Source: an uncultured Planctomycetota bacterium (GTDB lineage: Bacteria > Planctomycetota > PLA2 > JAEUHO01). Taken from it: a DNA stretch of 64,000 nucleotides. Below the pieces are notes generated by a model. It saw only the letters and a list, made by a program, of their open reading frames with translations. It ran no database searches and had not been told where the DNA came from. Made by a program: the position numbers and the translations under genes. The stretch is taken from NCBI GenBank assembly GCA_963802335.1, contig CAWDIE010000009.1:24961-88960 (forward strand). The letters are read 5' to 3'. Below are positions 5,954 to 51,857 of the stretch, in pieces (the first letter of the stretch is position 1; the number at the start of each line of letters is the position of its first letter).

Positions 5954-5998
5954 TGGCTCGGTCTCCCGGCCGCACGCGGCCGTTCTCGTGGCGTTGGG

Positions 5999-7822: not shown

Positions 7823-9276
7823 CAGACATCCTCCTCGGCGCGCGCGGTCGGGGCGGGCGTCGGTTCGTCGGGAAAGCGGAGCAGGGGGGCGCCGATCGCT
7901 CGTTCGAGCTCGGCCCAGGCGAGGTAGAGCTCGCGGGTGGCTTGGACCTTCTCGCGTTCCACCTCACGGGTGGAGCGGAGCAGGTCGATGAAGCGGAGCG
8001 CATCGGTCTCGCCGGCGAGCAGCGCCTGGCGACCGGTGCTGAGTGCCGCGACCGCTGCCGGCTCGACGTCCTCGTCGAAGCGGCGAGCGCGCTCGCGGCG
8101 GCGGAGCAGCAGGGCGTGCGCAGCTTCGAGCTCGCCGAGGATGCGGGTGTAGGCCGCCTCGAAGCGCTCCCGGAGCGCGTCGCGACGGGCCGTGGCCTCG
8201 GCGATTGCCGGCTGGTTGCGGTCGAAGATCGGCAGCTCGATCCCGAGCGGCAGGCCGAGGCGGTTCAGGCCGTAGGCGGCGTCTTCGCGCTCGTACGTGC
8301 CGGCGATGTCGAGATCGGGGATGGCGTTGGCGGCCTCGAGACGGAGCCGCTGCTCCGCCACGGCGTACTCGGCGCGGATGCGGTCGAGCGCGGGGTGGCC
8401 CGCGAGCGCCACGGCCCGGAGGCGAGCGATCGACGGCACGTCGGACGGGAGCGTCGGCAGCGACGCCATGGGGGGCGCGTCGACGTCGTCCGTGCGTGCG
8501 CCGATGCGCTGGGCAAGCGCGGCCCGCGCGGCGATCGTCTGCGCGACGGCGTCCACCTGATCGGCGTCGAGGCGCCGGGTGTCGAGATCGAGCAGCACGA
8601 GGTCGACGGCGGTGCTCGAGCGGACGCGCACGAGGTCCTCGACGCCGTCGCGGGCCTCGCGCGTCGTGGCGAGCAGCTTGGCCCGCACGGCCTCTTCGTA
8701 GGCGCCGAGCGCGGCCTGGATCCAGCTGCGGCGCAGGCCCAGGTACTCCTCGCGCTCCGTGGCGACCGCGCGAACGTTTGCGGCGCGTGCGTTCTGCGCG
8801 TTGAGTCCGTTCATCATCTGGCGCTTGCCGCCGAGCAGCACCTTCCAGCCGAGGGCTCCCTCCAGGCCCCAGGCGACGCTGCGCACGCCGTCGAGGCCCG
8901 AGAGCATCACCGGCCCGAGCGCGATCTCGGGATTGGGGAGCGGCGTCGCCGTGGAGCCGCGTGCCTGCGCGGGCCTCGCGTCGGCGCGCGCTTCGACGAC
9001 GCGGGGGTTGTGGTCGCGAAGGCGCCCCACGGCGGTCGAGAAGCGAAGGCTCGACGCGGGCGTCGCGGGCCGGGTCGACGGGGTCGACGGGCACGGGGTT
9101 GACGGGGGCGTGAGCGAGCGCGCCGCGTCGATCCGCGCGGGCAGGCAGGCGGTCTCCAACGGCACGCGGGGCACGGCGGGAGCGCGGCAGGCGGCCAGCG
9201 CCAGGCCGGCGAGGCCGGCGACGCACGTACGCGTGGCGAGCTGGGGCAGCGAAGCAAGGGGGCGGGGCGGGGACAT
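7822..9276 (-). CDS. TolC-like outer-membrane efflux protein (CusC/CzcC family).
   Basis: 484 aa. Lipoprotein-like signal (LALAAC), two coiled-coil/OEP-type repeats, and operon position. Confidence 0.85.
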   Translation of the reverse strand: MSPPRPLASLPQLATRTCVAGLAGLALAACRAPAVPRVPLETACLPARIDAARSLTPPSTPCPSTPSTRPATPASSLRFSTAVGRLRDHNPRVVEARADARPAQARGSTATPLPNPEIALGPVMLSGLDGVRSVAWGLEGALGWKVLLGGKRQMMNGLNAQNARAANVRAVATEREEYLGLRRSWIQAALGAYEEAVRAKLLATTREARDGVEDLVRVRSSTAVDLVLLDLDTRRLDADQVDAVAQTIAARAALAQRIGARTDDVDAPPMASLPTLPSDVPSIARLRAVALAGHPALDRIRAEYAVAEQRLRLEAANAIPDLDIAGTYEREDAAYGLNRLGLPLGIELPIFDRNQPAIAEATARRDALRERFEAAYTRILGELEAAHALLLRRRERARRFDEDVEPAAVAALSTGRQALLAGETDALRFIDLLRSTREVEREKVQATRELYLAWAELERAIGAPLLRFPDEPTPAPTARAEEDV

Positions 9277-26623: not shown

Positions 26624-27280
26624 ATGCTTCTGGTTTGCCGGTCGGACCTCGAGCTGGCTGACTTTCAGCGGCTCAAGGATCGCGTCGCCACGATCCCCAA
26701 CGAAGTCCGCTGGGCGCGGCGTGGGGGGCGCCTCATCCTGCTCGTGAGTCGGGCGACGCCCGATCAGCCCGATGTCTCCACGCTCGTCGACGACCCGGCG
26801 ATCGACTACGTGCTCCGCGACCCCTCCGAACGCGAAATCGCCCGCCTGCTCTCCCGCCGCGATGTACTCGATTTCGCCCTCATCGGAACGGGCGTGTTGG
26901 CGGCCGCCGCGGTGCTCGCCCCGCTCGGGGTCTACCTGACCTCGCCCGTGGAGAACAGCACCCCCGGCGGGGACCTTTTCGTGGGGCGGCTGGAGCAGAT
27001 CCCGGTGAAGAAGTCGATCTCGAAGGTGATCGATGGGGAGGAGTTCCTCGTCGTCCGCGCCGACGAAGATCACCTGTACGCCCTGGGCTCGGTATGCACG
27101 CACTCGGAGGTTTGCCACGTCGCGTGGAATCCCGACCGCGAGCAACTGATCTGCCCCTGCCACCGTGGCGCGTTCGATCTCCACGGCAATGTCCTCTCCG
27201 GGCCGCCGCCGCGCCCGCTTCCCACCCGCGACGTCCTCGTTCGCGACGGGAACGTCTACGTGAAGCGAGCCCGCCAATGA
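26624..27280 (+). CDS. Rieske [2Fe-2S] subunit with an extra N-terminal ~75-aa alpha/beta module.
   Basis: CTHSEVCH and CPCHRGAF boxes, one TM helix, and a GGGAGA SD. Confidence 0.9.
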   Translation: MLLVCRSDLELADFQRLKDRVATIPNEVRWARRGGRLILLVSRATPDQPDVSTLVDDPAIDYVLRDPSEREIARLLSRRDVLDFALIGTGVLAAAAVLAPLGVYLTSPVENSTPGGDLFVGRLEQIPVKKSISKVIDGEEFLVVRADEDHLYALGSVCTHSEVCHVAWNPDREQLICPCHRGAFDLHGNVLSGPPPRPLPTRDVLVRDGNVYVKRARQ

Positions 27281-27966
27281 GTTCCTCGGACAGCAACGCC
27301 CGGCGCCTCGAGCGGGCCCGCACCGCATTCCTGGGGACCCGCTCGCGCTTGGGCCGCATGCTGCGTCGCACCGGCGCCATGCGGCTCTCGCCCGCCTACC
27401 GTGGCGCGCGTTGGGTCTCGGCCGCCATCCTGGTGCTGCTGGCCTTCCTGCTCGTGAGCGGCATTCTGTTGTCGCTCTACTACAACCCCGGGCCCCAGGA
27501 TGCCTACGCCTCCACCCGTGGTCTCGTGACCACCGTCGGCGTCGGCTGGCTCGTCCGAAGCATGCACTACTGGGCGGGCGAGCTGCTGCTCATCGCCGTG
27601 CTCATCCACCTCGCCCTGACCTTCTTCCGGCGGGCCTACGTGCGACCACGGGAGTACGTGTGGGTTGGCGGCGTGCTCCTCCTCGTCCTCACCCTGGCCT
27701 TTCGCTTCACCGGGCGGCTGCTGCCATGGGACGAGTTCGGCTACGAGGCGGGGCAGCAGAGCCTGGCCATGATCGCCTCGGTGCCGGTGCTCGGCGACCT
27801 CGCGGCCACGTGGCTGCGTGGCGGCGGGGAGTTCGGCGTCGGCACGCTCAGCCGCTTCTTCGCGACGCACGTGATGATCCTCCCCTGGATCACCCTGCTT
27901 GTCGCCGCCATCCATCTCTACCTCGTGAAGAGCCACGGTCTGAAGGAACGGGAGGACGACGAATGA
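27277..27966 (+). CDS. Cytochrome b, N-terminal (b6-like) subunit.
   Basis: ATGA overlap with the Rieske stop. Two His pairs in TM helices (HYWAGELLLIAVLIH; HVMILPWITLLVAAIH). Confidence 0.9.
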   Translation: MSSSDSNARRLERARTAFLGTRSRLGRMLRRTGAMRLSPAYRGARWVSAAILVLLAFLLVSGILLSLYYNPGPQDAYASTRGLVTTVGVGWLVRSMHYWAGELLLIAVLIHLALTFFRRAYVRPREYVWVGGVLLLVLTLAFRFTGRLLPWDEFGYEAGQQSLAMIASVPVLGDLAATWLRGGGEFGVGTLSRFFATHVMILPWITLLVAAIHLYLVKSHGLKEREDDE

Positions 27967-28556
27967 TCATCCTCCTCGATCACGCCGCCGCTCCCGCCGA
28001 GGTCAAGAGCCTGACCGAGGCGATCCGCGCCCTCGGGCTGGACGCCGTGCCGCTCGAGGACAACCGAGGCCAGGCCCTCGAAGTGCTCGGTGCCGACCCT
28101 GGGCGGGTGATGGAGCTGGCCGAGGCGCCGGGCGTGGCCAGCATCCTGACGCGCCGAACCGCGCTGGAAGGGGGGGAGCCCCTGTGGCCCCACGGGGCGC
28201 TCCGCATCGCGATCCTCGCCATCCTCCTCTTCGTGCTGCTGATGCTCCTCAGCGCGTTCCTCCCGCCCGGCCTCGGCGACCCCGCCGGGTCACAGACCGG
28301 CGCGCTCGACCCGACGCACGACGTGGAGTGGTACCTGAGGCCGTTGGCCTGGGTCTACCGCCTCTCCGGCGACGTCGGTCGTCGCATCGGTGGCACGGCG
28401 GTACTCTTGTTCTGGGTCGTGCTCTTCCTTCTGCCGTGGATCGATCGCGGGAGCCTCGACACGCCGCGCAGGCAGTGGGTGAACCGCATCGTGCGGGGCC
28501 TTGGCTTCGCGGTCCTTGCCATGTTCGTCCTGCTTGCCCTGGGGGTGCTTTCGTGA
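27963..28556 (+). CDS. Cytochrome b C-terminal (subunit IV-like) protein with an N-terminal ~70-aa alpha/beta module.
   Basis: ATGA overlap. VEWYLRPL (a PEWY-like motif) and three TM helices. Confidence 0.8.
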   Translation: MIILLDHAAAPAEVKSLTEAIRALGLDAVPLEDNRGQALEVLGADPGRVMELAEAPGVASILTRRTALEGGEPLWPHGALRIAILAILLFVLLMLLSAFLPPGLGDPAGSQTGALDPTHDVEWYLRPLAWVYRLSGDVGRRIGGTAVLLFWVVLFLLPWIDRGSLDTPRRQWVNRIVRGLGFAVLAMFVLLALGVLS

Positions 28557-29821
28557 GGCGCCGGGTCGCTATCCTCCTGTGCCTCGCCGGACTTGGCGTG
28601 GCCGCCGCGCCCACGTGGGCGGAGGAGGTACGCGTCTCGTGCGTCACGCACTGCCACGGGGAGGAGAGTCGAGCGTTCGAGGAGAGCGTCCACGCGAAGA
28701 CCCTCGGCTGCACCGATTGCCACGGCGGCGACCCGACGGCCCAGCGCGACAAGGAGGCTTCCCACAGCGCCGCCGCGAACTTCCGCGGACGCGTGCCCCG
28801 TGAAGCGATTCCCGACCTCTGTTCGTCCTGCCACGCCGATCCGGTTCGCATGCATCGTCACGGCCTGCCGACGGACCAGCGTGCGCACTACGAGCGATCG
28901 GCCCACGGTCGAGCCGTGCTCGAGCGCGGTGATGTGAAGGCCGCCGTCTGTACGGATTGCCACGGATCGCACGCCATTCGCCGCGCCAACGATCCGCTTT
29001 CCCCTTCCGCCGCGGCCAATCAACCCGCCACTTGCGGCGCATGCCACAGCGACGCGGAGGCCATGGCGCCCTACGGCCTGGCGACGGACGTGGTGGAGCG
29101 ATTCGTCGCCAGCGTGCACGGGGAGGCCCTGCTCCGCAACCGTACGCGGGGCGCGCCGACCTGCTCGAGTTGCCACGGGGCGCACGCGGCTTCGCCCCCC
29201 GGCGTCGCCGACATCGTGGACGTATGCAGCCACTGCCACGCCTCCACGGCGGATCACTACCGCACGAGCCCGCACTTCCAGAGCGAGGACATGAGCTGCC
29301 GGGCCTGCCACGAGGAGGAGGGTACGGAGTTTCGTCGGAGCGGCTGCGCCGCCTGCCATGGCGCGCACGACATCGCGTCGGCCGATCTCGACCTCTATGC
29401 GGGCGACGCGCCGGGTCACTGCGACCACTGCCACCGGGACGGCGACGCTGCGGTCGACCGCGTGCGCGACGCGATCCTCTCCGGACGCGCTGCTGTCAAG
29501 CAAGGCATGGAGGACACGCAGGCGCTGATCGAACAAGGCAAGGCCCGCGGCCTTTTTCTCGAGAACGAGAAGCTCTACGTGCGCGAGTCGGCGTTGACGC
29601 TCGTCTCCTACCGCCCGCTGGCGCACGGACTCGATGCGGATGCGCTGGAGAACCACCTCGATCTCGGACTCAGGCGCCAGGACCGTACGCGGGAGATGCT
29701 CGAGAAGAAGAGCGCCGTGTCGCGTGACCGTCGCATCGTCATCCTCGCGTTCTCGTTCATCCTCCTCCTCTTCGCCGCGCTGCTGTGGGTGAAGCTCCAG
29801 GCCATCCGGAGACTATCGTGA
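28553..29821 (+). CDS. Multihaem cytochrome c (9 CxxCH plus 1 CxxxCH) with a C-terminal TM anchor.
   Basis: GTGA overlap and a signal peptide. Motifs: CVTHCH, CTDCH, CSSCH, CTDCH, CGACH, CSSCH, CSHCH, CRACH, CAACH, CDHCH. Confidence 0.9.
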   Translation: MRRRVAILLCLAGLGVAAAPTWAEEVRVSCVTHCHGEESRAFEESVHAKTLGCTDCHGGDPTAQRDKEASHSAAANFRGRVPREAIPDLCSSCHADPVRMHRHGLPTDQRAHYERSAHGRAVLERGDVKAAVCTDCHGSHAIRRANDPLSPSAAANQPATCGACHSDAEAMAPYGLATDVVERFVASVHGEALLRNRTRGAPTCSSCHGAHAASPPGVADIVDVCSHCHASTADHYRTSPHFQSEDMSCRACHEEEGTEFRRSGCAACHGAHDIASADLDLYAGDAPGHCDHCHRDGDAAVDRVRDAILSGRAAVKQGMEDTQALIEQGKARGLFLENEKLYVRESALTLVSYRPLAHGLDADALENHLDLGLRRQDRTREMLEKKSAVSRDRRIVILAFSFILLLFAALLWVKLQAIRRLS

Positions 29822-31803
29822 GGCTACCGCGGCTTCCACTGGGGCGCCTGCTCGCCCTCGCCGCGATCGTCCTGGCGGCGGTCGTCGTCGTGGGCGGCGG
29901 CGGCACCTACGTCGCGATGAGCGTGACGACCAAGCCCGAGTTCTGCGCGAGCTGCCACATCATGGAGCCCTACGTCGAGTCGTGGCGTAACTCCAGCCAC
30001 AAGGACGTGGCGTGCGTGGACTGCCACTACGAACCCGGCCTGCTCGAGACCTTCGAAGGGAAGTTCAAGGCCTTGTCACAGCTCGCGAAGTACGTGACGA
30101 GTACACAGGGCACGAAGCCCTGGGCCGAAGTGAGCGACTTCTCGTGCATGCGGAGCGGGTGTCACTCGAACCGATTGCTGGAGGGTGAGATCCAGTTCGG
30201 TCGGATCCGCTTCGATCACCGCCACCACCTGATCGACCTGAAGCGGGGCAAGAAACTCCGCTGCACGTCGTGCCACAGCCAGATCGTCCAGGGCGAGAGC
30301 CACCTCACGGTGACGACGACGACCTGCATTCTCTGTCACTTCCGGGCGGGGGAGGGCGAGGAGAGCAACGACGACTGCAACACCTGCCACGGTCCGCCGC
30401 CCGAGGCCATCGACCTCGACGGGTTCGTGTTTCGCCACGGGGAGTACCTGGCCCGCGGTGTCGACTGCAAGGACTGCCACGGGGATATCACCCGCGGGAC
30501 CGGGGACGTCCCGCGTGCGCGCTGCGGATCCTGCCACAACCGCCAGGAGCACCTCGATCGCTACGACGACGTGGAGTTCATGCACCGCCACCACGTGACG
30601 GACCACTCGGTCGCCTGCCTCGAGTGCCACACGGAGATCGAGCACGGACTGACGCCGAGGAAAGAGCACTACGCCGGCGCATGCGCCGATTGCCACGAGA
30701 AGCCGCACGCCGTCTCGAGCGGCATCTACCAGGGGCTCGGTGGCCGCGAGGTGGAGGACGACCCGAGCGTGATGTTTCGCGCGCGCGTGACCTGCACCGG
30801 GTGCCACCGGCCGCCGTTTCCCGACGCGCCGACGCCGCCTCCGGGGACGACGTGGGCGGCGGATCCGCTCGCTTGTATTGACTGCCACGGCCCCGGTTTC
30901 GACGGGATGGCGGATCACTGGCAGGCCGAGATCCGGGCGACCACCGCCCAGACGAAGGCGGCGCTCGAGGTGCTCGCAGCTGCCATCGACGAGGCAGGGA
31001 AGGAGGCGCCGCCAGCCAGCCGCGAGGCCTATGCCGCGGCGGCCCACAACCTGGGCCTGGTGCTGCTCGATCGCAGCGATGGCGTTCACAACCTGACCTA
31101 CACGCGTGCTCTTCTCCAGCGCGCGGCCGAGGATCTCGCGACCGGGGCCGAAGCGCTTGGTACGCCGCCCACGTTGCCGAAGATCGAAGTCGGCCCGCGC
31201 GTCGCGTCGGACAACGAGTGCACGACGATGTGTCATACGGGGATCGAGTCGGTTGCCGTGCCCCGCTTTGGTCGCTACGGGTTCTCGCACGCACCGCACT
31301 TCCTGAAGGCGGGGCTCGACTGCTCGGACTGCCACGCGATGGAGCCCCACGGCACGACGATCGTGAAGCCTTCGATGTGCATCGAGTGCCACCACGAGGA
31401 CGCCGTCGAGGAGGAGAACTGCGACGTTTGCCACGTGGACGTCGTTGCGCTGCGCGAGTTGGACGCGCCCGACGACGAGGCGTCGATGCTGGGCGTCGAC
31501 TGCATCGGGTGCCACGAGTCCGTGGCGGATGAGCACTCGCTCGACGCGGTCATGAGCGCCTGCTTCGACTGCCACGACGAGGACGAGGGCATCGATACGG
31601 AAGCCTGGTTCACGCGCGTGGACCCGAGCCTGCGGATGGTCGAGAAGCGTCTGGCGGGCTCCACGCGATCCGAGGCGCGGGCGATCCGGCGCGAGCTCGT
31701 CGCGTTGCGCGCCGCGGGCCCCTTCCACCACGGGGCCGCCGCCGAGGCGGCCGTGGCCCGCTGGATGAAGCAGATGGACGACGCGGAGGCCGAGGAGGAC
31801 TGA
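29818..31803 (+). CDS. NapC/NirT(NrfH)-like membrane-anchored multihaem cytochrome c (16 CxxCH plus variant sites).
   Basis: GTGA overlap. N-terminal TM helix followed by CASCH...CVDCH, then 16 canonical CxxCH plus CTTMCH and CMRSGCH. Confidence 0.9.
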   Translation: MRLPRLPLGRLLALAAIVLAAVVVVGGGGTYVAMSVTTKPEFCASCHIMEPYVESWRNSSHKDVACVDCHYEPGLLETFEGKFKALSQLAKYVTSTQGTKPWAEVSDFSCMRSGCHSNRLLEGEIQFGRIRFDHRHHLIDLKRGKKLRCTSCHSQIVQGESHLTVTTTTCILCHFRAGEGEESNDDCNTCHGPPPEAIDLDGFVFRHGEYLARGVDCKDCHGDITRGTGDVPRARCGSCHNRQEHLDRYDDVEFMHRHHVTDHSVACLECHTEIEHGLTPRKEHYAGACADCHEKPHAVSSGIYQGLGGREVEDDPSVMFRARVTCTGCHRPPFPDAPTPPPGTTWAADPLACIDCHGPGFDGMADHWQAEIRATTAQTKAALEVLAAAIDEAGKEAPPASREAYAAAAHNLGLVLLDRSDGVHNLTYTRALLQRAAEDLATGAEALGTPPTLPKIEVGPRVASDNECTTMCHTGIESVAVPRFGRYGFSHAPHFLKAGLDCSDCHAMEPHGTTIVKPSMCIECHHEDAVEEENCDVCHVDVVALRELDAPDDEASMLGVDCIGCHESVADEHSLDAVMSACFDCHDEDEGIDTEAWFTRVDPSLRMVEKRLAGSTRSEARAIRRELVALRAAGPFHHGAAAEAAVARWMKQMDDAEAEED

Positions 31804-31860
31804 CCTCCTTAGGCGCTGCGAGGCGCGATAGACTCCCCGGCTCGATCCGGGAGCCCCTGC

Positions 31861-33441
31861 ATGCCTCGCCGTTCATTACCCGCCCTCCTGCTCGTCCTCG
31901 CGATCGGGGGGCTACTCGCCGTTCCCGTTCGGCCGGCCGGCGCCGACGGCCCCGCCCTCAAGCGCAACGGTGGCTACCTCGGCTTCTTCCTGCGGGAGAC
32001 GGACGACGGCGTCACCATCGAGCGGCTGCATCCGGGGAGCATGGCCGAGCAGGCCGGCTTCCGGGCCGGGGATGCTATTCGCGAGGTGAACGGCCGTCCG
32101 CTCGAGAACGGCGACGCCTTGATCCGCTGGCTCTGGAGCGGGCGGGAACTCAAGGTGGGCATCCGCCGGGGCGACGAGGATGTGACGATCACGACGTCCA
32201 CGCGCGACCTCGACGCGTTGCCGCAGCTCGAGGATGTGGCTTCGGACTTCACGTTGCCGTCCAAGGACGGGGACGGTACGCACAGCCTGAAGGCGCTGCT
32301 ATCCAAGGGGCGTCCCGTCGTCCTGGTGTTCGGGTCGTTCACCTGACCGCCGTTCCGGCGACAGTCGGGGACTGTCCAGGAACTCGCAACGCGCTACCAG
32401 GCCCACGCCGAGTTCCTCATCGTCTACATCCGCGAAGCGCATCCGATCGACAGCAACTGGGCCGACCCGACGCTCGACGTCCGCGACCCCACCACCGACG
32501 AGGAGCGCGCCGGTACGGCCAAGCAATGCGCCCAGTCGCTGGGGCTCGACCTGCCCATGGCCGTCGACGGCGTCGATGACGCCGTGGCTCTGGCCTACAA
32601 CGCCTGGCCCGAGCGCATCTACATCGTGCGCCCCGACGGGCGGATCCACTACAAGAGCGGCCTGGGTCCCTTCGGGTTCCGCCCGGCGGAAGCCGAAGCG
32701 TCGCTGGCGAAGTTGCTGGGGGTGTCCAGACCGACGTCCGAGAGCCCGGACGCCGAAGACGCCGCCGACGCAATCGAAGATGATGGCATCTCCGGCGTCT
32801 GGCGGGGACAGGGCGAAGGTTCCACCACGGGGGGGAAGCCGGTGCCCTTCCGCATCCTCATGCGGGTCGCGAAGGACGGGACGGTCAGCGGGCGCATCGA
32901 AGCGGGTAAGGCTCGCACCCGGCTTCGGCTGGCCGACGCGACGTTCGACCGCACGTCGGGGAAGCTCCACGCGAGCACCCGCTCGCAGGGACAGGCGCTG
33001 ACCGTCGATGCCACCCTCGAGGGCGAGGTGCTCGAGGGGGAGCTGCGCCGGCCGGAGGGGGAGGCGCTCTTCGCCTACGAGCTGAAGCGCGTGCGCAAAG
33101 CCGCGCCGCTCGTTCCGGGCATCGAGAACGCCACCGGCCGCTGGCACGGCGAGGCTACCGACAGCGATCCGGCCCAGGCCGGCAAGGCGGTGGAGCTCGT
33201 GTTGACCGAGGCGGACCCCGAGGCCCTGTCGGGGTCGATCACGATCGACGGCGAGACCGCGCACATCGAGCGCGGTCGCTACGATGCGAAGACCGGTGCC
33301 TTGAGCGGACTCGCGAGCACCGACGACGGCACCTCGTGGCGCATCGTCGCGCAGATCGAAGGGAAGAAGGCCAAGGGCAGCGCATCGATCGGCAACGTAG
33401 CCCTGGTGGTGCCGTTCACGCTGGTGCTCGAGGGGGAATAG
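31861..33441 (+). CDS. PDZ plus iodothyronine-deiodinase-like (thioredoxin-fold) candidate selenoprotein. TGA at 32344-32346 is read as Sec. The C-terminal half is an internal ~100-aa duplication.
   Basis: Listed ORFs 31861-32346 and 32557-33441 are in the same frame, and the only stop between them is that TGA. Read-through gives VVLVFGSFT-U-PPF...FLIVYIREAHPIDSNW, which matches the deiodinase active-site and downstream motifs. Confidence 0.7.
32352..32383 (+). promoter_or_regulatory. Candidate bacterial SECIS hairpin.
   Basis: GUUCCGG-C-GACAGUC-GGG-GACUGUC-CAGGAAC. The stem starts 6 nt after the UGA, and the G-rich apical loop lies about 20 nt downstream of it. Confidence 0.55.
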
Positions 33442-33583
33442 CCCCCAGGACGGTGCGTTGCTGCGCTCGACCGTGCGCCGAAGGGCCGTCTTCGCGACGT
33501 CTCGTTGCAACGGATTCCCGACGGCGATCCTCGTCGCGCAGTGCGCCTTGACTTCCGACGGACCCAGGCCTACACGAAGAGGT

Positions 33584-35356
33584 ATGAAGACGACTCCAGT
33601 TGGGTTGAGTGTCCTCGTTTTCGTGATGGGTCTACTGCTCCTGAGTGCGCCGGCGACGCCGGAGGCCCTCGCCGAGCCGCCGCCGGGTGAAGAGCCCGTT
33701 CCCACGCTCTCCGATGCCGAGGCGCGTGCGCTCGAAGACGCTCGGCGCCATGTAGCCTCGGGCGGCGCGGTCGACGCACCGTTGGGAGAAGGCCGGTCGC
33801 TCTTGGGCTGGCCGGCGTACCCCGTCACCCGCTTGCACGATGCCGTCGAGCACGGCTGGGAGGCCGTAGCGCGTTACCTGCTCGATCACGGCGCCGATCC
33901 CCGAGCCGTCGTCGAGTCGAAGAGCCACTACAACCAACTTCGCCCGACCGACATCGCGCTCCTCCAGGGACACAGGAACCTCCTCCGGTTGCTCAAGGAA
34001 CGCGGCCTTCCGGCCGTCGGACACGAGACGACCGTACAGATCGACGTCGGCGAGGCGGACGATGCACTCGCGTTCATCTCGTTGGACGAGGGGCGGTGGG
34101 CGCGACTCGACACGGACAACATCGGCACCACGACCGCGGCGGACTTCCTCATCTCCCCGAGCGACCGGTTCATCAGCGGCCTGGACGGCTATCACCAGAA
34201 CTTCAAGCACGTCGGGGACGACACGGCCGTCGCGCCGATCACTGCCGCGCAGCTTCCTCCCGGCAATCGGGCGCCGAGCGCAACCGCGTGGCGCTTGGGC
34301 GTGGAGCCCGAGGATGTCCGCGCCGGCCTGCTCTTCCTGGTGCGTACGTCGGTCGGCGCGGTGTTCCGCGTGCAGCTGGTGTCGTTCGACCGGCCGCGCG
34401 GCCGATGCGAGCTGCGGTACGCGCGGCTCGCGACCGGGACGGACGGCGTGGCCGAGCCCCCGGGGGCCCATCGTGAAGCCAGGCCCGAAGGCCCCGTGCA
34501 CGATGCGTCGAACTGGGACGCGATGGTCACGGCGGTCGGCCGGGGGGACTTGAGCACCGTCCAGCGGATGCTCCGGGGAGGCTTCGACTGGCGAAGGCGC
34601 TCCGCCCGCGGGCAAACGGTCCTGCATGCGGCCGTGTCCGCGAAGCAGCCCGCCATCGCGGACTGGATCCTCGAGTACGGGATGACCGGCGGCGAGGCGG
34701 GCATGCCGTCGGTGGATCAGTATCTGGATGTGCACGAGCGGCTGCTCGATGCGCCGGACGAGAACGGCTTCACGCCACTCCATCTCGCTTCGTATACGGG
34801 GCAACCGGATCTCGTGCGCGTGCTGCTCGCTCAAGGCGCTCTCATCCACGCGACGGACGCGAAGGGCCGGACGCCCCTTCACCTCGCGGCCTTGGGCGAT
34901 CACGCTCCCGTCGTGCAGGTCCTCATCGAGGAGGGAGCGCGGGTGCGGCTCGGGGATGCGCGGGGCAACGTGCCCGGGAGCCTCACCTCCAACCCGTCCC
35001 TGGCGGGCTACCTGGGCAAGATCGCCCAGGAGCAGCCGGACCCGGACGAGCGAGCCGTGCGCGCCCTGCTCGACCGGTTGGTCAAGGCGCTGCGCCGCGG
35101 GGACCGAGCGACGCTGTCACGCCTTCTTCCTCGCGGCGACGTCGCTGGTTTGCCGGATCCCTTGGTCCCCGTGGCGTTCACGTCGCGGACTCAGAGCTTC
35201 CGGTTGGGCCTCCGCGACGCGGAGGCAGCTGTCGTGCTTACGCTCGAGGAACCAACGCCTGTGGTCGCCGGATTCCGCTTGACGGTCTCGCTGGCGAAGG
35301 ATGTGGAGACGGATACCTGGCGCGTCCGGCACTCCGAACTCGCGCGTCAACTCTAG
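33584..35356 (+). CDS. Secreted ankyrin-repeat protein.
   Basis: Signal peptide. ANK motifs such as NGFTPLHLASYTGQPDLVRVLLAQGA and KGRTPLHLAALGDHAPVVQVLIEEGA. Confidence 0.8.
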   Translation: MKTTPVGLSVLVFVMGLLLLSAPATPEALAEPPPGEEPVPTLSDAEARALEDARRHVASGGAVDAPLGEGRSLLGWPAYPVTRLHDAVEHGWEAVARYLLDHGADPRAVVESKSHYNQLRPTDIALLQGHRNLLRLLKERGLPAVGHETTVQIDVGEADDALAFISLDEGRWARLDTDNIGTTTAADFLISPSDRFISGLDGYHQNFKHVGDDTAVAPITAAQLPPGNRAPSATAWRLGVEPEDVRAGLLFLVRTSVGAVFRVQLVSFDRPRGRCELRYARLATGTDGVAEPPGAHREARPEGPVHDASNWDAMVTAVGRGDLSTVQRMLRGGFDWRRRSARGQTVLHAAVSAKQPAIADWILEYGMTGGEAGMPSVDQYLDVHERLLDAPDENGFTPLHLASYTGQPDLVRVLLAQGALIHATDAKGRTPLHLAALGDHAPVVQVLIEEGARVRLGDARGNVPGSLTSNPSLAGYLGKIAQEQPDPDERAVRALLDRLVKALRRGDRATLSRLLPRGDVAGLPDPLVPVAFTSRTQSFRLGLRDAEAAVVLTLEEPTPVVAGFRLTVSLAKDVETDTWRVRHSELARQL

Positions 35357-37118: not shown

Positions 37119-38090
37119 ATGACACGCCAGCATCGCTGGGACGAGCCCGGCCTCAAGCTCCACATCACGAACCGGGGGGGAGCGAAGCGCACGCTCATGG
37201 AAGTCCGGCGCGACTTCCGTACCTTCCTTGCAGCGCTTGCCTGTTCCGTGCGTCGCGGAGAAATCCAGGTTCTCGCGTACGCGCTCATGATGAACCACTT
37301 CCACCTCTTCGTGCAGAGCCTGGGGGCGCTGTCCGAGGCCATGCAGCGGATCCAGACGGCGTACGTGCGGTACTTCAATCGGTCGCGACGTCGGGACAGT
37401 CCCCTGCTTCGAGGGCGGTTCTTCTCCAAGCCGGTGATGACGTACGCCTACGAGGGCAACCTCCTCTTCTACATCCACGAGAACCCGGTCGGCGCGCGTC
37501 TCGTCGCACGCGCCGAAGACTGGGAGTGGAGTAGTGCCTACCACTTCGCCCGAGATGCCCTGCCTCCGTGGTTGACTCCCGACGTGTGGGAGCGTCACCG
37601 CGGGATCTGGGCTTCGAAAATGCGTGATAAGAGCGCGTCCCCGGAGCGCATCGAGCTGATCGAGCGACGGCTGATCATGCCGGCCCATGGCGAGGATCCT
37701 CTCGACACGCTTCTCTCCGACGTGCCGGAGCGTGTTTGGAGCTGGATGGTCCGCAAGGCGGCGCTGGCGGACGGCACGCGTCCGGGAATGCCGGCCGCCG
37801 GGATCAAAGCGGTCCGACGTGTGCTGGGCGAGGCCGCGGAGAGGCAACTTTCCCTCGTCGTTCACCTCGAAGGCTCGCGCGCGTATCCCTGCGGACGGCT
37901 GCTGGAGGCGGCCTTGCTGAGGGATGTGGCAGGCGCCACCTACACCGAGGTCGGACGCCTGATGGGGCAGAGCGCGGCAACGTGCAAGCGATTGCACCAG
38001 CTCCACGGCCGCGCGATTCAGGAGGATGAGGCGTACAGGCGCTTGGCCCAGGAGTTGGTCATGGCGTGCGTGCGGCCGCTGCGGGTGTGA
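37119..38090 (+). CDS. REP-associated tyrosine transposase (RAYT; IS200/IS605-like Y1 HUH transposase family).
   Basis: LHITNRG..., HUH motif MNHFHLFVQ, then YVRYFNRS.RR.SPLLRGRFFSKPV and the catalytic-Tyr motif FYIHENPV.ARLV...EDWEWSS. Flanked by REP units of opposite orientation. Confidence 0.85.
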   Translation: MTRQHRWDEPGLKLHITNRGGAKRTLMEVRRDFRTFLAALACSVRRGEIQVLAYALMMNHFHLFVQSLGALSEAMQRIQTAYVRYFNRSRRRDSPLLRGRFFSKPVMTYAYEGNLLFYIHENPVGARLVARAEDWEWSSAYHFARDALPPWLTPDVWERHRGIWASKMRDKSASPERIELIERRLIMPAHGEDPLDTLLSDVPERVWSWMVRKAALADGTRPGMPAAGIKAVRRVLGEAAERQLSLVVHLEGSRAYPCGRLLEAALLRDVAGATYTEVGRLMGQSAATCKRLHQLHGRAIQEDEAYRRLAQELVMACVRPLRV

Positions 38091-42473: not shown

Positions 42474-43571
42474 ATGAGGAAACTCGTACGACCGGTGCAG
42501 AAAGTCAACACAGCGTCGGTGGGTTTGGATGTCCACCAGAACGTCATCGTCTACGCCCGCCTGGACCGCCATGGCAACGAGGCCGGCAAGGGGGCCATTC
42601 GTTCCCGGCCGGAGGCCCTGACGAAGTTCCTGGCCAGCCTGGAGGAGCCCACCCATGTGGCGTTCGAGGCCGGCGGCTCGACGTTCTGGGTCTACGACCT
42701 ACTCGTTGACGAACTGGGTGCGGACTTCGTTCACGTGGCCCAACCCAAGAAGATCCGTGCCATCGCCAACAGCACACAGAAGAATGACAGCAACGATGCG
42801 TGGTGGCTGGCCTACCTCACCTACGAGGGCCGACTGCCCGAGTGCTTCATCCCCACGGGGAAGTTGCGCGAACTGCGGATCGCGGTTCGTGAGCGATTCG
42901 CCCTCGTGCAGCAGATCAGCAGGGTGAAGACGCGCATCAAGTCGCACCTCCGGCAGTTGGGGATCTCGCTGCCGGTCCGGAAGGTGGACTCGATCCGCGG
43001 CTGGAACTTCTTGGTGGACCTGGCCGAAGAGCGCTCGGACGTGCAGGGGATGGCGGTGATGCAGTCCCTGGTGCTACTCGAGTACCTACTGGAAGCCCGC
43101 GAGGCGTGGGAGGAGACCATCGACGACTTGGCCAAGTCCTTCCCAGAAGTCCACACGCTCCAAACCGAGATGCCGGGCATTGGCTGCCGGCTCGCCGCCG
43201 TGATCATCGCCGAGCTCGGGCCCGTGGACCGCTTCACGTCAGCCAAGGCCATGGGGCGCTTTGCTGGCCTCACGCCATCGGATCGAAGCTCCGCGGGGAA
43301 GACCCGCTATGGGGTGATCACGAGGGAGGGAAGCGAGCACCTGCGCTGGGCCCTCACCCAGGCTGCCATGGCATGCACGAGAGCACGATCCGGGCCAGGT
43401 CTTGCCGCGGGGAACTGGATCCGAGCTAAGCAGCGACGCATGGGAAGCAAGGGCAAGGCACGGGTGGCGGCCGCTCGGAAGATCACGGAGTCGATCTGGC
43501 GTCTGTTCCAATGGGGTGAGTGCTTCGACCCGGCCAAGCCCTTCGGTGGGATGCCCGCAGGCGCCCGCTAA
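42474..43571 (+). CDS. IS110-family DEDD transposase/recombinase.
   Basis: N-terminal VGLDVHQ...VAFEAGG...NDSNDAWWLA (RuvC-like DEDD). C-terminal MPGIGCRLAAVIIAELGPVDRFTSAKAMGRFAGLTPSDRSSAGK. Confidence 0.92.
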   Translation: MRKLVRPVQKVNTASVGLDVHQNVIVYARLDRHGNEAGKGAIRSRPEALTKFLASLEEPTHVAFEAGGSTFWVYDLLVDELGADFVHVAQPKKIRAIANSTQKNDSNDAWWLAYLTYEGRLPECFIPTGKLRELRIAVRERFALVQQISRVKTRIKSHLRQLGISLPVRKVDSIRGWNFLVDLAEERSDVQGMAVMQSLVLLEYLLEAREAWEETIDDLAKSFPEVHTLQTEMPGIGCRLAAVIIAELGPVDRFTSAKAMGRFAGLTPSDRSSAGKTRYGVITREGSEHLRWALTQAAMACTRARSGPGLAAGNWIRAKQRRMGSKGKARVAAARKITESIWRLFQWGECFDPAKPFGGMPAGAR

Positions 43572-47559: not shown

Positions 47560-48801
47560 CTCGAGGAACACCTCGACGTCGGTCTCCAGATCCTTCGGCG
47601 CCCCGTCGAAGTAGAAACTCCGAATGGGAAGGCCGCCGAGGTCTCTCGACACGCGCGGATAGATCGCCTCGCTCACGATGCCGTTCATGCAGGTGAAGGG
47701 ACTGATGTCGACGATGCCGTGCACGCCACGCTGGGCGAGGCAGACGGCCCGTCCCACGTTGAGCACCATCTCCCCGGAGACCGCCGTGGCCGGGATGTAC
47801 GGCTGGGCCGCGGCGAACACCTCGTCGAGGGAGGGCTCCTCCCATCCCGCGAAGTCCTCCGCGAAGGGCGCGAGCAGCGCGTGCTCGTCCGCCCGTTGGA
47901 GGCGGGCGCGTAGCCATGCGGATAGCCGCTCCCGGGACCACGCCCGGCCTCGGAGCCGGAGGGACTGGACGTGCTGCACATGCGTGTAGCCGACCCACTC
48001 GGTGATGTCCGCCAGCCACGTCTCGGCGCCGCCTGCCTCGAGTTTGCGGATGAGGTCCTCGTTCGAGAACGTGTTGAGCCGGCAGAAGATCTCGCCCACG
48101 ACGCCGATCCGCGGTGTGTCCATCGCGCGCGTGATCGCGAGCGTGCGGAAGCGGTCCCGGCAAGCGACGAGCGTCTCCCGCAATGCGTCGAGCTGGGCGG
48201 CGGAGCTCAATCCTGCCGACCGGAGCGTGGCGGCGCAGCGGTCCAGGCATGCGTCGTACAGGCGGTCGGCCTCACCGGCCTCCTCCTCGTGAGGTCGGTG
48301 CTTCAGGAGGAGCTTGCGCAGGATGTCCGCCGCGACCAGGGCGCGCCACTGTGTGCGGAAAAACGACAAGGCTCCCTCTCCCAAGACCTCGTACCCATTG
48401 CGGCTGCTGAGGGAGAGGATGACCGTGCGCTCGTACCCCAAGGCGTCCAGCGTGCGACGCAGGCTCGGTGCGTACTGCCCGAAGCGGCAGGGACCGTTCG
48501 CGGTCGGCATGAACAGGACGACCCGCGCCGGGTCCGTGCCCGGTAGCCGCAGCGCGCGGAGAAAGTCGCCCAGCGTGACCTTCGCCGGCAGGCACTCGTC
48601 GCCCGCCGTGTGCCGGGCACCGAGGTCGAGCGTCTCCTCGTCGCTCGGCGGCGTCGGTGACGCGTCGATCCCATGGGCCTGGAAACCGGCACAGAAGAGC
48701 CGGCTGCTGCCCTGGGCCATCGGGGGGACGAACACATGTTTTCCGTGCAGCGGCCCGAGGCCGTGGCGCGCGCGCCGCGAGGTGGGGAGCCGACTTAGCA
48801 T
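47464..48801 (-). CDS. Partner protein of the activase: 2-hydroxyacyl-CoA dehydratase-like / DUF2229-type (family call tentative).
   Basis: 445 aa, 7-nt overlap with the upstream activase gene. Contains ...GDECLPAKVTLGDF... and ...ISPFTCMNG.... Confidence 0.6.
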   Translation of the reverse strand: MLSRLPTSRRARHGLGPLHGKHVFVPPMAQGSSRLFCAGFQAHGIDASPTPPSDEETLDLGARHTAGDECLPAKVTLGDFLRALRLPGTDPARVVLFMPTANGPCRFGQYAPSLRRTLDALGYERTVILSLSSRNGYEVLGEGALSFFRTQWRALVAADILRKLLLKHRPHEEEAGEADRLYDACLDRCAATLRSAGLSSAAQLDALRETLVACRDRFRTLAITRAMDTPRIGVVGEIFCRLNTFSNEDLIRKLEAGGAETWLADITEWVGYTHVQHVQSLRLRGRAWSRERLSAWLRARLQRADEHALLAPFAEDFAGWEEPSLDEVFAAAQPYIPATAVSGEMVLNVGRAVCLAQRGVHGIVDISPFTCMNGIVSEAIYPRVSRDLGGLPIRSFYFDGAPKDLETDVEVFLELARARGRRAGAACEPGPGDGGDAHGRSGNDL

Positions 48802-51800
48802 CGCAAGACCCCCTTGCTCTCCAGGAACGCCTCGCAGCGCGTGAGGTAGCCCGCATCCCCGGCGTGTCCATCGAACTGGAGGTGAAGGAGGGGGGCGGCG
48901 AGCACGTCACGCACGATCGACTTCAGATACGAGTCCGGGCCGCACTTGAAGTTGGTGATGTAGATGACATGGAAATTGGGAACGGCCCGGGCGTGCTCGG
49001 CGGCCGCGAGGATCCGTCGCCCGCTGGCCCAGTACATGTTGGGGTGTAGATGGGAGACCGCCGTGCCGGCCGGCACGAGGTAGTCCAAGGGAAGGACGTT
49101 GGCGCCGTAGCGCGAGCGGAGCTTCCGGGGAATGTCGCAGTTGACCATCCGGTCGTAGAGGTTGTACGTGCGTCCCAGCAGGAGGAGGCCCGGCTCCCCG
49201 GTATCCCGCAAGGCCTCGAGGGCATCGGCTCCCGCGGCCAGGGTCTCTCGACGGAATGCCTGCTCGCGCTCGTACGCCGCCCGCACGGCACGATCGGACA
49301 CACGTCGTGCAATGCCGATCTTGGCCGCCAGCCCAGCCAGGGCTTCCTGTACGTGGCGGCGTCCAAGGCGGAAGTGCACGGTGGGGGCCAGGATTCGTTC
49401 TCGTGCATGCTCCAGGCCAGGGCAGGACCGAAGGACGAAGGGAAGCACCTGGTTCCATGGACAGAGGTGGGAAGGTAGGCCGTCGTCCTCACGCATCGCC
49501 TCGTCGCGTACGTTGGGAACCAGCAGTGCCTCCACGCCCTCGTCGAGCAGGGCTGCTGCTTGCCCATGCGCCACCTGGATCGGATGGCAAGGGGCGGCCA
49601 GCGCCAGCGCCGCGCCTCGGGTGGCGGTCGGCGTGTCCGTCGGCGGGGAGAACACGGGTGAGAGCCCCAGCGCGCGCACGTAGGTGTGCCAGAACACCGG
49701 CCGATCCATGACGGAAGAGCAGCGAAGCATACCGACCGGCCGCTCGCCCTGCGGGCCCGTATCCCCCGCGTCCGATACGACGGAGCCGGTGAAACGTGCA
49801 ATCGTGTCCTCTCGGTGCGCCATGAGGTCCGGAATCACAGGACGACGGTCGGTGAGAGCCGGCTTGCGATACCTCTCCGAGCATCGATCTCCCCAGTAGG
49901 TCCTCTGGCCTTCGACCGTGTACTGCCGCACGTCGCAACGATTCGTGCAGCCCTTGCAGACGAACGACCGGCACGTCATGGGCACCGCGTCGAGGTCGTA
50001 TCCGCGGAACCGTGTCGCACGCGGGCGACGCCGAAGCTCCTCTCGGGCCTTCAAGGCGGCCCCGATGGCTCCCAGCACGCCGCAGTGAGGCGGCACCGTG
50101 ATGCGCTTGCCCGTCAAGGACGCGAACGCGGCGGCGACGGCCTGATTGTAGGCGGTTCCCCCTTGAAAGAAGATAGCCTCACCGACGCGGCGTCCACGCA
50201 CGACGCGGTTCAAGTAGTTCAGGGCCACGGCGTAGGCCAGACCGGCAGCGAGATCCTGGGGCGCGGCTCCCTGCTGCCGCCGGTGCACGACCTCGCGCTC
50301 CATGAACACGGTACATCGCTCGCCCAGTCCACAGGGAGACGTCGACGCGAAGGCGAGATCGGCAAACTCCCGCTCGATGCAGATACCGAGCTTCTCGGCC
50401 TGTTCCTCGAGGAAGCTGCCGGTGCCCGCGGCGCACGCCTCGTTCATGGTGAAGTCCACCACGATGCCGTCTTCGAGCGCGATGAACTTCGAGTCCTGCC
50501 CGCCGATCTCGAAGATCGTGTCGACCAACGGGCCGTCCAGGGCGCGCGACACGGAGACCGCGCCTATCTTGTGCGCGGTGATCTCGTCGCACACGACGTC
50601 CGCGCCCACGATCTCGCCGATCAGCTCGCGTCCACTGCCCGTCGTGCCCACGCCGAGGACGTCGAGCGCGCTGCCTGAGCGAGCGGCGAGCTCACGCAGG
50701 CCCTGTTTGACCGCGTCGATCGGCTTTCCTGCGGTGCGGAGGTAGCTCTCGTGCCAGACATCACCCGATTCGTCCAGGACGACGACGTTGGTGCTGATGG
50801 AACCGACGTCGACGCCGAGATAACCGCGGCTGAGAACCTCCGGATTGGGCTTCATCGCGTCGCCGTTGGTGACGATGCGTACCGCGTCTCGACAGAGACG
50901 TGCCGTACGGGTGGGGGAGGCCGCCGTGACGCGCGACCGGCTACGAGGTGGCCGAGCTCGCGTCGAAGTCGCCATCGGGTCGCCTGAGAGCAGCGCGGCT
51001 CCGACGGCGCCGAGTGACGTCGGATGCCGGGGCACGAAGCACTGCTCCTCCGTCATGCGCAGTCGATCGCGAAGCGCGCGCACGACTCCTTCGTTGAGAG
51101 CCACGCCACCAATCAGGGCCACCGGCGCCACGACGTCGTGCCCCTTCAGGAGCCCGTTCACGATGTTCCGAGCGATCGCGTCGCACAATCCACGCAGTAC
51201 CTCGGCCGGCGTATGGCCCCGTTGCTGAGCATGGATCATGTCGCTCTCGGCGAACACGGAGCACCGACCGGCGATGCGGGCGGCGCTGGGAGCCTCCTTC
51301 GTCGCCGCGGCCATCCGCTCGACCGGGATGCCCAGTCGCGTGGCCTGCGTATCGAGAAACGATCCCGTACCGGCGGCGCAGTCTCCACTCTGGGCATGGT
51401 CCTGGATGCAGAGCTTCCCGTCGCTCGCATTGGGTTCGAGTCGCAGGAAGCGAGCGCTCTCCGCGCCGATCTCTATGACCGTTCGCACCGACGGGTGCAG
51501 TCGTGCCATTGCGTGGGTCAGTGCCCGGCAGGCGTTGACGCGCTGGCCTGCGACATGGGGCGCGAGCAAGGCTGCACCCGATCCAACGACGGCCGTTGCG
51601 GAGATTTCGTCCGGCGCGATGCGGGACTGCAGGGAGTCGAAGAGTCGTCGGGCCGCATCGGCGGGGCTCACGCGCGGCTCTGCAACCTCGCTCAGCAGGG
51701 TCCAGCAAGACGGTCGTGGTGAAGCGTCTTCGTGGCTCGCCAGAAACGGCGAGGGCGTCACGAGCAGCGACTGCTGCAAGGAGGTGTCCTTGCGACTGCC

Positions 51801-51857
51801 GCGCACGGCCATACGTGCGCCCGCCGCGCCGACGTCGATGCCTACGTGCAGTCCCAT
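48795..51857 (-). CDS. CoA-substrate-specific enzyme activase-like protein: two BcrAD/BadFG (ASKHA) ATPase domains plus a C-terminal extension.
   Basis: GIDVGAAG.. and GVDVGSISTNVVVLDESG. Twice CAAGTGSFL. A Cys cluster CKGCTNRCDV. Confidence 0.8.
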   Translation of the reverse strand: MGLHVGIDVGAAGARMAVRGSRKDTSLQQSLLVTPSPFLASHEDASPRPSCWTLLSEVAEPRVSPADAARRLFDSLQSRIAPDEISATAVVGSGAALLAPHVAGQRVNACRALTHAMARLHPSVRTVIEIGAESARFLRLEPNASDGKLCIQDHAQSGDCAAGTGSFLDTQATRLGIPVERMAAATKEAPSAARIAGRCSVFAESDMIHAQQRGHTPAEVLRGLCDAIARNIVNGLLKGHDVVAPVALIGGVALNEGVVRALRDRLRMTEEQCFVPRHPTSLGAVGAALLSGDPMATSTRARPPRSRSRVTAASPTRTARLCRDAVRIVTNGDAMKPNPEVLSRGYLGVDVGSISTNVVVLDESGDVWHESYLRTAGKPIDAVKQGLRELAARSGSALDVLGVGTTGSGRELIGEIVGADVVCDEITAHKIGAVSVSRALDGPLVDTIFEIGGQDSKFIALEDGIVVDFTMNEACAAGTGSFLEEQAEKLGICIEREFADLAFASTSPCGLGERCTVFMEREVVHRRQQGAAPQDLAAGLAYAVALNYLNRVVRGRRVGEAIFFQGGTAYNQAVAAAFASLTGKRITVPPHCGVLGAIGAALKAREELRRRPRATRFRGYDLDAVPMTCRSFVCKGCTNRCDVRQYTVEGQRTYWGDRCSERYRKPALTDRRPVIPDLMAHREDTIARFTGSVVSDAGDTGPQGERPVGMLRCSSVMDRPVFWHTYVRALGLSPVFSPPTDTPTATRGAALALAAPCHPIQVAHGQAAALLDEGVEALLVPNVRDEAMREDDGLPSHLCPWNQVLPFVLRSCPGLEHARERILAPTVHFRLGRRHVQEALAGLAAKIGIARRVSDRAVRAAYEREQAFRRETLAAGADALEALRDTGEPGLLLLGRTYNLYDRMVNCDIPRKLRSRYGANVLPLDYLVPAGTAVSHLHPNMYWASGRRILAAAEHARAVPNFHVIYITNFKCGPDSYLKSIVRDVLAAPLLHLQFDGHAGDAGYLTRCEAFLESKGVLRC

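Follow-up and report, generated by a model that had tools for sequence, protein, structure and literature searches.

The deiodinase fold is best known from the thyroid-hormone metabolism of vertebrates. Bacterial deiodinase-like selenoproteins, with a bacterial selenocysteine (Sec) insertion sequence (SECIS) and with homologs containing cysteine (Cys), were described from the Sargasso Sea (Zhang, Fomenko & Gladyshev, 2005; PMC1088965), and the family is listed in the prokaryotic selenoproteome reviews of 2022 and 2026 with the motif UxxC (PMC9312934, PMC13188914). The gene analysed here is located at 31861-33441, on the + strand of a 64-kb window, which is the whole stretch of 64,000 nucleotides taken from contig CAWDIE010000009.1 of an uncultured Planctomycetota bacterium. 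It shares with the selenoproteins of 2005 the Pfam family, the Sec/Cys column, a putative SECIS right after the UGA and a presumed redox function (PMC1088965, PMC9312934, PMC13188914). Very probably it is one gene that has been wrongly split: comparison with its homologs indicates that the UGA at codon 162 would be decoded as Sec by SelB and tRNA-Sec, directed by the stem-loop at 32359-32377, and that the product would be an exported protein of four parts. All 38 Sec forms listed in this work show U-[P/G]-P-[F/Y] and no Cys at +3, in contrast to the UxxC of the reviewed family, and neither the fusion to a PDZ domain nor the twin C-terminal barrels are mentioned in the papers on bacterial deiodinase-like selenoproteins. 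The family is known since 2005, and the new element is the architecture: a predicted signal peptide, PDZ, the deiodinase (Dio) domain with Sec, and two novel modules modelled as barrels. The features on which the comparison is based are the following:

31861..33441, + strand: complete predicted selenoprotein gene, 526 codons including Sec162, plus TAG; matching structure in the orthologous loci L001, L002, L003 and L084
31960..32199, + strand: PDZ domain, residues 34-113 (Pfam PDZ, PDZ_2 and PDZ_6, E = 4e-9 to 1e-8)
32221..32712, + strand: catalytic domain of deiodinase fold (peroxiredoxin/thioredoxin-like), residues 121-284 (PF00837, NF038285, Dio3/Dio2)
32344..32346, + strand: UGA codon 162, predicted to be read as Sec and to be the active-site nucleophile (TGA/TGY column; aligned with Dio3 Sec170)
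32359..32377, + strand: conserved putative SECIS core, 7-bp stem 32359-65 / 32371-77 with the apical loop C-GGG-G (covariation)
32434..32445, + strand: R-E-A-H, Arg191-Glu192-Ala193-His194, with the Glu and His of the proton-relay/loop-D edge (84/84 listed homologs)
32527..32529, + strand: Cys223, the only cysteine, candidate resolving residue (role suggested by conservation)

Reading frame, homologs and active site

A single frame extends from ATG 31861 to TAG 33439-41 on the + strand, contains 526 sense codons and shows one internal stop, TGA 32344-32346. Translated, the flanks of this codon read ...VVLVFGSFT / PPFRRQSGTVQEL...FLIVYIREAHPIDSNW, and the residues either side of the stop are ...KGRPVVLVFGSFT / PPFRRQSGTVQELATRYQAHAEFLIVYIREAHPIDSNW... 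The open reading frame (ORF) track and the public gene calls split the gene at this point. The initial annotation had reported the split and the absence of any further stop up to 33441, and both were found again when the frame was re-read. The window has a GC content of 65-74 %, and TGA is the ordinary stop of many of its genes, such as the Rieske and 16-haem genes. Taking high GC content at third codon positions (GC3) and low GC content at second positions (GC2) as the mark of a coding-like stretch, the TGA of this gene is the only one in the 64-kb window that joins two such stretches in the same frame, and the scan found no other TGA-split coding pair.

Profile searches against Pfam and NCBIfam were run on the read-through protein with U replaced by C. 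The T4_deiodinase family PF00837 matches residues 143-284 with 95.3 bits (cut-off 27), and NCBIfam NF038285 gives 184 bits over residues 121-284, corresponding to model positions 176-342 of 347, but does not reach its cut-off of 250. Among the sequences of known structures, mouse Dio3 (4TR3, E = 2e-21) and Dio2 (9H48, E = 4.5e-19) align to the domain. The active-site motif corresponds residue for residue to those of mouse Dio3 (FGSCTcPPF...IIYIEEAHPSDGW) and Dio2, and the column of Sec162 is that of Dio3 Sec170. Alignment to PF00837, to both deiodinases and to the Cys homologs thus places the stop on the catalytic Sec/Cys position, as had been proposed. With Dio1-3 (4TR3, 9H48) the domain shares FGSxT-U-PPF, (V/I)YI.EAHP.D.W and the catalytic Ser/Thr/Sec/Tyr/Glu/His/Trp over an alignment of about 135-150 residues.

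The homolog set includes at least 80 loci from a scan of one genome per GTDB species which, together with the window and its orthologs, give 84 listed domains; the counts below refer to this list. The catalytic column contains TGA in 38 domains and TGC/TGT (TGY) in 46. The set covers six or more phyla: Planctomycetota, Gaiellales/Thermoleophilia, Armatimonadota, Acidobacteriota, Chloroflexota and others, and TGA forms belong to Planctomycetota, Gaiellales/Thermoleophilia, Armatimonadota, Acidobacteriota (Bryobacterales), Chloroflexota and others. Among the matches listed, the closest named protein relatives are from Planctomycetota metagenome-assembled genomes, with 60 % identity. In some Planctomycetota genomes a pair of deiodinase-like paralogs is separated by about 1.2 kb: in L051 (4891 and 6121) both show TGA, and in L024 (4759 and 6121) there is one TGC and one TGA, with Sec and Cys forms adjacent.

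Residues invariant or nearly so in the 84 domains plus Dio2 and Dio3 are F157, G158, T161, U/C162, P164 and F165 around the active site, and Y189, R191, E192, A193, H194 and P195 further downstream; Glu192 and His194 align with Dio3 Glu200 and His202. The proton relay proposed for deiodinases consists of Dio2 Ser127, Thr129, Tyr157, Glu160, His162 and His182 (PMC11592359). Five of these six residues are kept here as Ser159, Thr161, Tyr189, Glu192 and His194, and the sixth, the distal His (Dio3 His219, Dio2 His182), is Pro210 in this protein and Pro in 82 of the 84 bacterial homologs. Sec and Cys forms show different surroundings. Ser159 is present in 38/38 Sec forms, which mostly have Pro163 as well, versus Asn159 in 42/46 and Gly163 in 44/46 Cys forms, and the Ser159/Pro163 state is common to the Sec forms and the animal deiodinases. 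In this alignment, the active-site surroundings (residues 159 and 163) covary with the chalcogen predicted at position 162. The domain also differs from the animal enzymes at two further positions: the bacteria-specific Cys223, kept in 34/38 Sec and 43/46 Cys forms (77/84), is Leu in Dio2 and Dio3, and R191 stands where the deiodinases have E/D before EAH. Judged from its sequence, the domain belongs to the PF00837 fold or superfamily and not to the thyronine deiodinase enzymes.

The orthologs come from five independent assemblies (the window, L001, L002, L003 and L084) with 51-100 % identity, and each shows exactly one in-frame stop. In all five it is TGA, in the identical column, within GSFT-TGA-PPFRRQSGTVQ and followed by a conserved (E/D)L. 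Among the database relatives of the downstream ORF, the closest three have 90, 64 and 51 % identity and a fourth was found later; all four are annotated as C-terminal fragments. Their contigs belong to separate samples and sequencing projects and each contains a PDZ ORF of 161-162 codons, the TGA and the continuing frame. In the window and L001, no ATG, GTG or TTG is found in frame among the first 70 codons past the TGA, which makes translation from an internal start impossible for that stretch, and yet the ratio of nonsynonymous to synonymous substitution rates (dN/dS) of these codons is 0.16-0.28, as low as in the remainder of the gene. Translation beyond the UGA is shown by these data.

If the TGA were a true stop, the locus would contain a 161-residue PDZ protein and a separate downstream gene, starting for example at ATG 32557 and coding for a truncated piece of the deiodinase domain with the C-terminal modules, as the ORF track and public gene calls have it. 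This is extremely unlikely, because the split would run through the active site of one thioredoxin-fold domain, the start-less 70 codons are under strong purifying selection in the window and L001, and the Cys-form homologs are continuous. The frame is kept past the stop in the five orthologous assemblies. A pseudogene, or a sequencing or assembly error turning TGC/TGT into TGA, would need a single-base change only. However, the identical TGA is present in Logan SRR30301719, ENA ERZ25039600, JGI 3300041024 and three SRR142194xx runs, 33 further loci among those listed have TGA, and the gene shows no further stops or frameshifts and a low dN/dS throughout, so that this explanation is effectively refuted and retains practically no probability.

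Stem-loop downstream of the UGA and selenocysteine decoding

The core stem-loop starts 12 nt past the UGA and its loop is 21-23 nt after it. Like the E. coli fdhF-type SECIS and the bSECISearch consensus, it lies within the ORF directly 3' of the UGA, and G is found in its small apical loop about 20 nt downstream (PMC1088965, PMC9312934). By contrast, the SECIS of vertebrate deiodinases is in the 3' untranslated region and that predicted for the window gene is in the coding region. TGA and TGY forms differ in how the 50 nt after the codon fold, the mean minimum free energy being -16.5 kcal/mol for the former and -10.6 for the latter (Mann-Whitney p = 2e-9). A compact hairpin, with its G-rich loop about 13-31 nt downstream, is present in all TGA forms; it is centred 22-31 nt from the U of the UGA, its apical loop contains G, and the TGY forms have no equivalent. 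The stems vary by clade (GACAGUC/GACUGUC, CGAGAGU/ACUCUCG, GAUCCCA/UGGGAUC, GGCGUCA/UGGCGCC, GGGGAC/GUCUCC and others), and the position and the G-containing loop are kept despite this change of stem sequence.

Covariation was measured on ungapped, codon-anchored alignments that were not fitted to a structure, with sliding of the 3' partners as control. In the window's clade, 91.8 % of the core cells are paired versus 27-45 % when slid, and three pairs have changed on both sides. A group of 13 sequences shows 92.3 % paired cells versus 30-57 %, with four compensatory pairs and 15 compensatory cells, and its covariation score was reached by 0/500 shuffles. The rare Thr codon ACT within the stem is invariant in the window's clade (7/7 sequences), in spite of a GC3 of about 0.87. 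A SECIS-like hairpin of 32 nt with a G-rich loop had been proposed at 32352-32383: its inner core, 32359-32377, covaries, but its outer stem (77 % paired versus 54-63 % slid) shows zero compensatory changes and is not conserved. The extended hairpin 32352-32383 was rejected for this reason.

These data also bear on a reading of the UGA without Sec, either by a near-cognate tRNA inserting Trp, Cys or Arg or by a reassignment across the organism. The base after the UGA is C, and UGA-C is a leaky context; the Sec machinery was not observed in the 64-kb window either. Reassignment is excluded because UGA ends many ordinary genes of the window. As for leakiness, the position is the catalytic Cys column, a covarying hairpin specific to TGA forms in the SECIS position would have no role there, and the contrast of Ser159/Pro163 with Asn159/Gly163 is what is expected for a chemically different residue. 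Readthrough without Sec is very unlikely on these grounds.

Several observations weigh against the decoding of codon 162 as Sec in an exported enzyme of this family. None of selA, selB and selD was found in a Pfam scan of the about 30 genes of the 64-kb window, no tRNA, tRNA-Sec included, was found in the window, nor was tRNA-Sec found beside the 37 Sec-form loci, and none of these four genes was found adjoining any Sec-form locus. The energy of the window hairpin alone does not differ significantly from dinucleotide shuffles in this DNA of 69 % GC (z = -0.18), and for this reason the comparative tests were used instead. The loop of the window's clade, GGG / CGGGS, lacks the U that is present in most other clades and in the canonical bacterial SECIS, and Rfam, at gathering and at permissive thresholds, gave nothing relevant for the window or for the stem-loop, a putative SelB target. 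Export is judged from an N-terminus assessed by eye. In the cleft and clamp for thyronine, the equivalents of Dio3 Phe258 and Arg275 are Pro (AWPER) and Leu (KSGLGP) and, since His219 is not kept either, thyronine-type deiodination is not simply transferable to this protein. Finally, no experimental characterisation of a bacterial PF00837 protein was found in the searched literature, in which the matches concerned the unrelated flavin iodotyrosine deiodinase.

Four independent comparative tests support the earlier proposal of a selenoprotein with UGA at a deiodinase-type active site and a bacterial SECIS downstream. Because the TGA and the stem-loop are conserved, the organism would be expected to have the Sec machinery and the capacity to decode Sec. 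By the same token, the Sec-form genes predict the use of selenium in Planctomycetota, Gaiellales, Armatimonadota and others. For annotation, gene callers divide or cut short this gene, and at least 37 more in reference genomes, at the Sec codon; all of them should be merged and marked as selenoproteins.

Domain architecture and C-terminal modules

The remaining features of the gene are:

31849..31853, + strand: Shine-Dalgarno-like GGGAG, 7 nt before the ATG (putative, read from the sequence)
31861..31944, + strand: predicted Sec-type signal peptide, residues 1-28, cleavage after PAGA (judged by eye)
32713..32778, + strand: acidic low-complexity linker, residues 285-306 (translation; low predicted local distance difference test, pLDDT, where the model starts)
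32779..33108, + strand: beta-barrel module 1 as modelled, residues 307-416, opening DDGISGVWRG (AlphaFold2, hhalign, fold matches)
33109..33438, + strand: beta-barrel module 2 as modelled, residues 417-526, opening ...ATGRWHG (as module 1; relatives P0018, P0020 and L088)

The N-terminus, MPRRSLPALLLVLAIGGLLAVPVRPAGA|DG, shows a basic n-region, a hydrophobic core and an AxA site, and the three elements are kept in the orthologs, which have PAAA|DG, AFA|RK, ARA|QE and VHA|QE. Since the twin Arg is not conserved, export by Tat is unlikely and the Sec pathway is indicated; the protein is probably exported to the periplasm. Vertebrate deiodinases have an N-terminal membrane anchor instead of the cleavable signal peptide and PDZ predicted here. 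A bacterial selenoprotein combining PDZ with a thioredoxin fold has a precedent in the Trx7/PDZ family NF041199, but that family is unrelated, with CxxU as its motif and another catalytic domain; its model matches the PDZ region alone with 19.7 bits (cut-off 300), and CxxU is absent from the window protein.

PDZ-Dio(Sec) proteins with the DSNW signature were also found in L004, L005, L040 and L006. The first three lack the C-terminal extension, and L006 (1126) has a SASA domain of sialate O-acetylesterase type (PF03629) in place of the barrels. The proteins of NF038285 (EF-hand plus deiodinase, mainly Planctomycetota, for example P0005-P0010) share a homologous catalytic domain and the Cys223 column, but they have an EF-hand N-terminus and not PDZ, are mostly Cys forms with Asn159/Gly163 and lack C-terminal barrels. 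The combination of EF-hand and deiodinase-like domain is also shown by L048, L051 (6121), L017 and L018, which include Sec and Cys forms and have an extra C-terminal domain of about 330 residues with a conserved end, ...CFY. This comparison of architectures agrees with the initial annotation, which had considered PDZ and the C-terminal modules atypical for the family.

Residues 307-526 have no Pfam or NCBIfam family match. When 1.84 billion cluster representatives were searched exhaustively with phmmer, eight relatives of the extension were found at E <= 1e-3: five orthologous fragments, two large propeller proteins and one small repeat protein. The two large proteins, P0018 and P0020, show Sortilin/BNR-type propeller matches (one of them also PDZ) and carry the module in tandem, matched in three separate stretches each. 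A metagenome scan for further orthologs with the twin module found only one distant match, L088 (6141-9806), which is a protease of tricorn type (PD40, Tricorn_C1, PDZ_Tricorn, S41) and has one copy of the module inserted. The module, of about 100 residues, has the signature sGxWxG...G.(Y/F)D..tG.L and is found also in large secreted-type proteins, mostly with PDZ. Being new, very rare and recurrent in PDZ-containing secreted proteases and propeller proteins, it deserves the definition of a family.

That the extension contains a duplicated module of about 100 residues, as proposed earlier, is real by hhalign (98 columns, probability 83 %, E = 8.5e-6), but the relationship is remote (18 % identity) and pairwise BLASTP between the two modules is insignificant. 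AlphaFold2, run on the C-terminal 225 residues with an alignment of four sequences, models two modules made entirely of beta-strands, 8-9 in each, with a mean pLDDT of 81 and a predicted template modelling (TM) score, pTM, of 0.48; module 1 has nine strands and a pLDDT of about 80-89. Foldseek against PDB finds kievitone hydratase, TbpB, nitrobindin, FABP and Cap15 with E = 1e-4 to 1e-2, matches that are weak, with low TM owing to the orientation of the two domains, and consistently of calycin type. The model weakly suggests two remotely homologous calycin-like barrels.

Possible function and genomic context

In the whole protein of 526 residues, Sec162 and Cys223 are the only redox-capable residues. 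The selenolate of Sec162, activated by the network of Ser159, Thr161, Tyr189, Glu192 and His194, would attack an electrophilic atom of the substrate; candidates are the oxygen of a peroxide, a halogen bound to an aromatic ring and an oxidised sulfur. Cys223 may then resolve the Se-X intermediate to a selenenylsulfide, which would be reduced by a periplasmic thiol or electron donor, and PDZ and the two barrels might serve to bring in or retain the substrate or a partner. The pairing of a nucleophile with a distant resolving Cys has a parallel in the cycle of the atypical 2-Cys peroxiredoxins (PF00578, BCP 2CX3), which have the thioredoxin-like fold class in common with the domain; BCP is matched in PDB with E = 5e-5. 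PF00578 (AhpC-TSA) gives 34.9 bits (cut-off 26) beneath the stronger match of PF00837. The domain differs from peroxiredoxins by a deiodinase-specific insertion, by a far higher PF00837 score and by the absence of the peroxidatic motif PxxxT/SxxC, since VFGSFT-U has Thr at -1.

A true reductive dehalogenase, acting on halogenated phenolics as deiodinase or debrominase with the chemistry of the animal enzymes, is doubtful. It would agree with an active-site segment nearly identical to those of Dio2 and Dio3, with the five of six proton-relay residues kept (PMC11592359) and with the resemblance of calycin-type barrels to folds that bind small hydrophobic ligands. However, Dio3 His219, Phe258 and Arg275 are changed to Pro, Pro and Leu, and Dio3 Cys239 is not kept either; the barrels match known folds weakly (E = 1e-4 to 1e-2) and an experimental precedent in bacteria is absent from the searched literature. 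The loss of the thyronine-contact residues disfavours thyroid-hormone-like substrates but does not count against dehalogenation in general. A long shot, more specific still, is that the proteins of the PDZ-Dio(Sec) clade are reductive dehalogenases or redox enzymes that are exported and depend obligately on selenium; their two barrels would capture a small hydrophobic, possibly halogenated phenolic, ligand, and in this lineage the electrons would come from the Rieske/cytochrome b/25-haem complex encoded upstream. No full-length Cys form of the PDZ-Dio architecture was found in a search of 5.8 billion clusters, which fits a strict need for Sec. If this were true, the clade would have a respiratory or detoxifying role in bacteria and would be the counterpart, and a possible evolutionary precursor, of the animal thyroid-hormone deiodinases. 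With its predicted export, two redox residues, PDZ, barrels that resemble ligand-binding folds and, in one lineage, a conserved place after a large multihaem operon, the protein offers a tractable entry to the function of the bacterial deiodinase fold, more than 20 years after its discovery.

Upstream of the gene, five genes of the + strand (26624-31803) encode a bc-type complex with 25 c-haems attached:

26624-27280, + strand: Rieske 2Fe-2S protein
27277-27966 and ~27963-28556, + strand: split cytochrome b, with the N and C parts as separate genes
to 29821, + strand: 9-CXXCH cytochrome
29785-31803, + strand: 16-CXXCH cytochrome of NapC/NirT type, ending 57 nt before the selenoprotein gene

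The order of cytochrome operon and selenoprotein gene is shared with L001 and L002, and in L002 the operon is preceded by ceramidase-like and Peptidase_C92 genes, as in the window. In L003, L004 and L040 no CXXCH-rich gene was found within 6-8 kb upstream, and in L084 the upstream neighbour is on the opposite strand. From this context the product could be taken as a dedicated accessory or redox partner of the Rieske/cytochrome b/9-haem/16-haem complex and not as a stand-alone enzyme, keeping apocytochrome or complex thiols reduced or acting as a terminal reductase. In favour of this, the gene follows the 16-haem gene in the same orientation at a distance of 57 nt, and a scan of the junction and the surroundings of the gene found no promoter- or terminator-like site. 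However, L001 and L002 are the closest relatives, so their shared order may be plain inheritance, the linkage is missing in the other loci named, and the CxxC motif of TlpA/ResA/CcmG type is absent; such a role is unlikely. The linkage is lineage-specific and is weak evidence of functional coupling, because the order is kept only in L001 and L002. The link to the multihaem operon, from which a periplasmic redox role had been suggested, thus holds in these two loci and is absent from L003, L004 and L040.

Immediately downstream of the predicted selenoprotein gene, 33458-35356 (+) codes for a protein of ankyrin repeats that has a hydrophobic segment at its N-terminus; it is not conserved at this place in L002, where a MazG-like gene is found instead. 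Two transposase-type genes are located 4-10 kb downstream: an IS200-like gene at 37119-38090 (+; Y1_Tnp, weak match) and an IS110-family transposase at 42474-43571 (+). The bins at 36-38 kb and 42-46 kb, overlapping these two genes, show a drop in GC content to 0.65-0.66. On the - strand, 2780-9276 contains an RND efflux system with an AcrB-type pump, an HlyD-type adaptor and an outer-membrane factor; the TAG of the adaptor ORF directly abuts the pump ORF in the same frame, which is probably coincidental. Also on the - strand, 48795-51857 encodes a large fusion of a BadF/BadG/BcrA/BcrD-type ATPase and DUF2229 (CoA-enzyme activase type), which hints at an activator of an anaerobic radical-type dehydratase or reductase.

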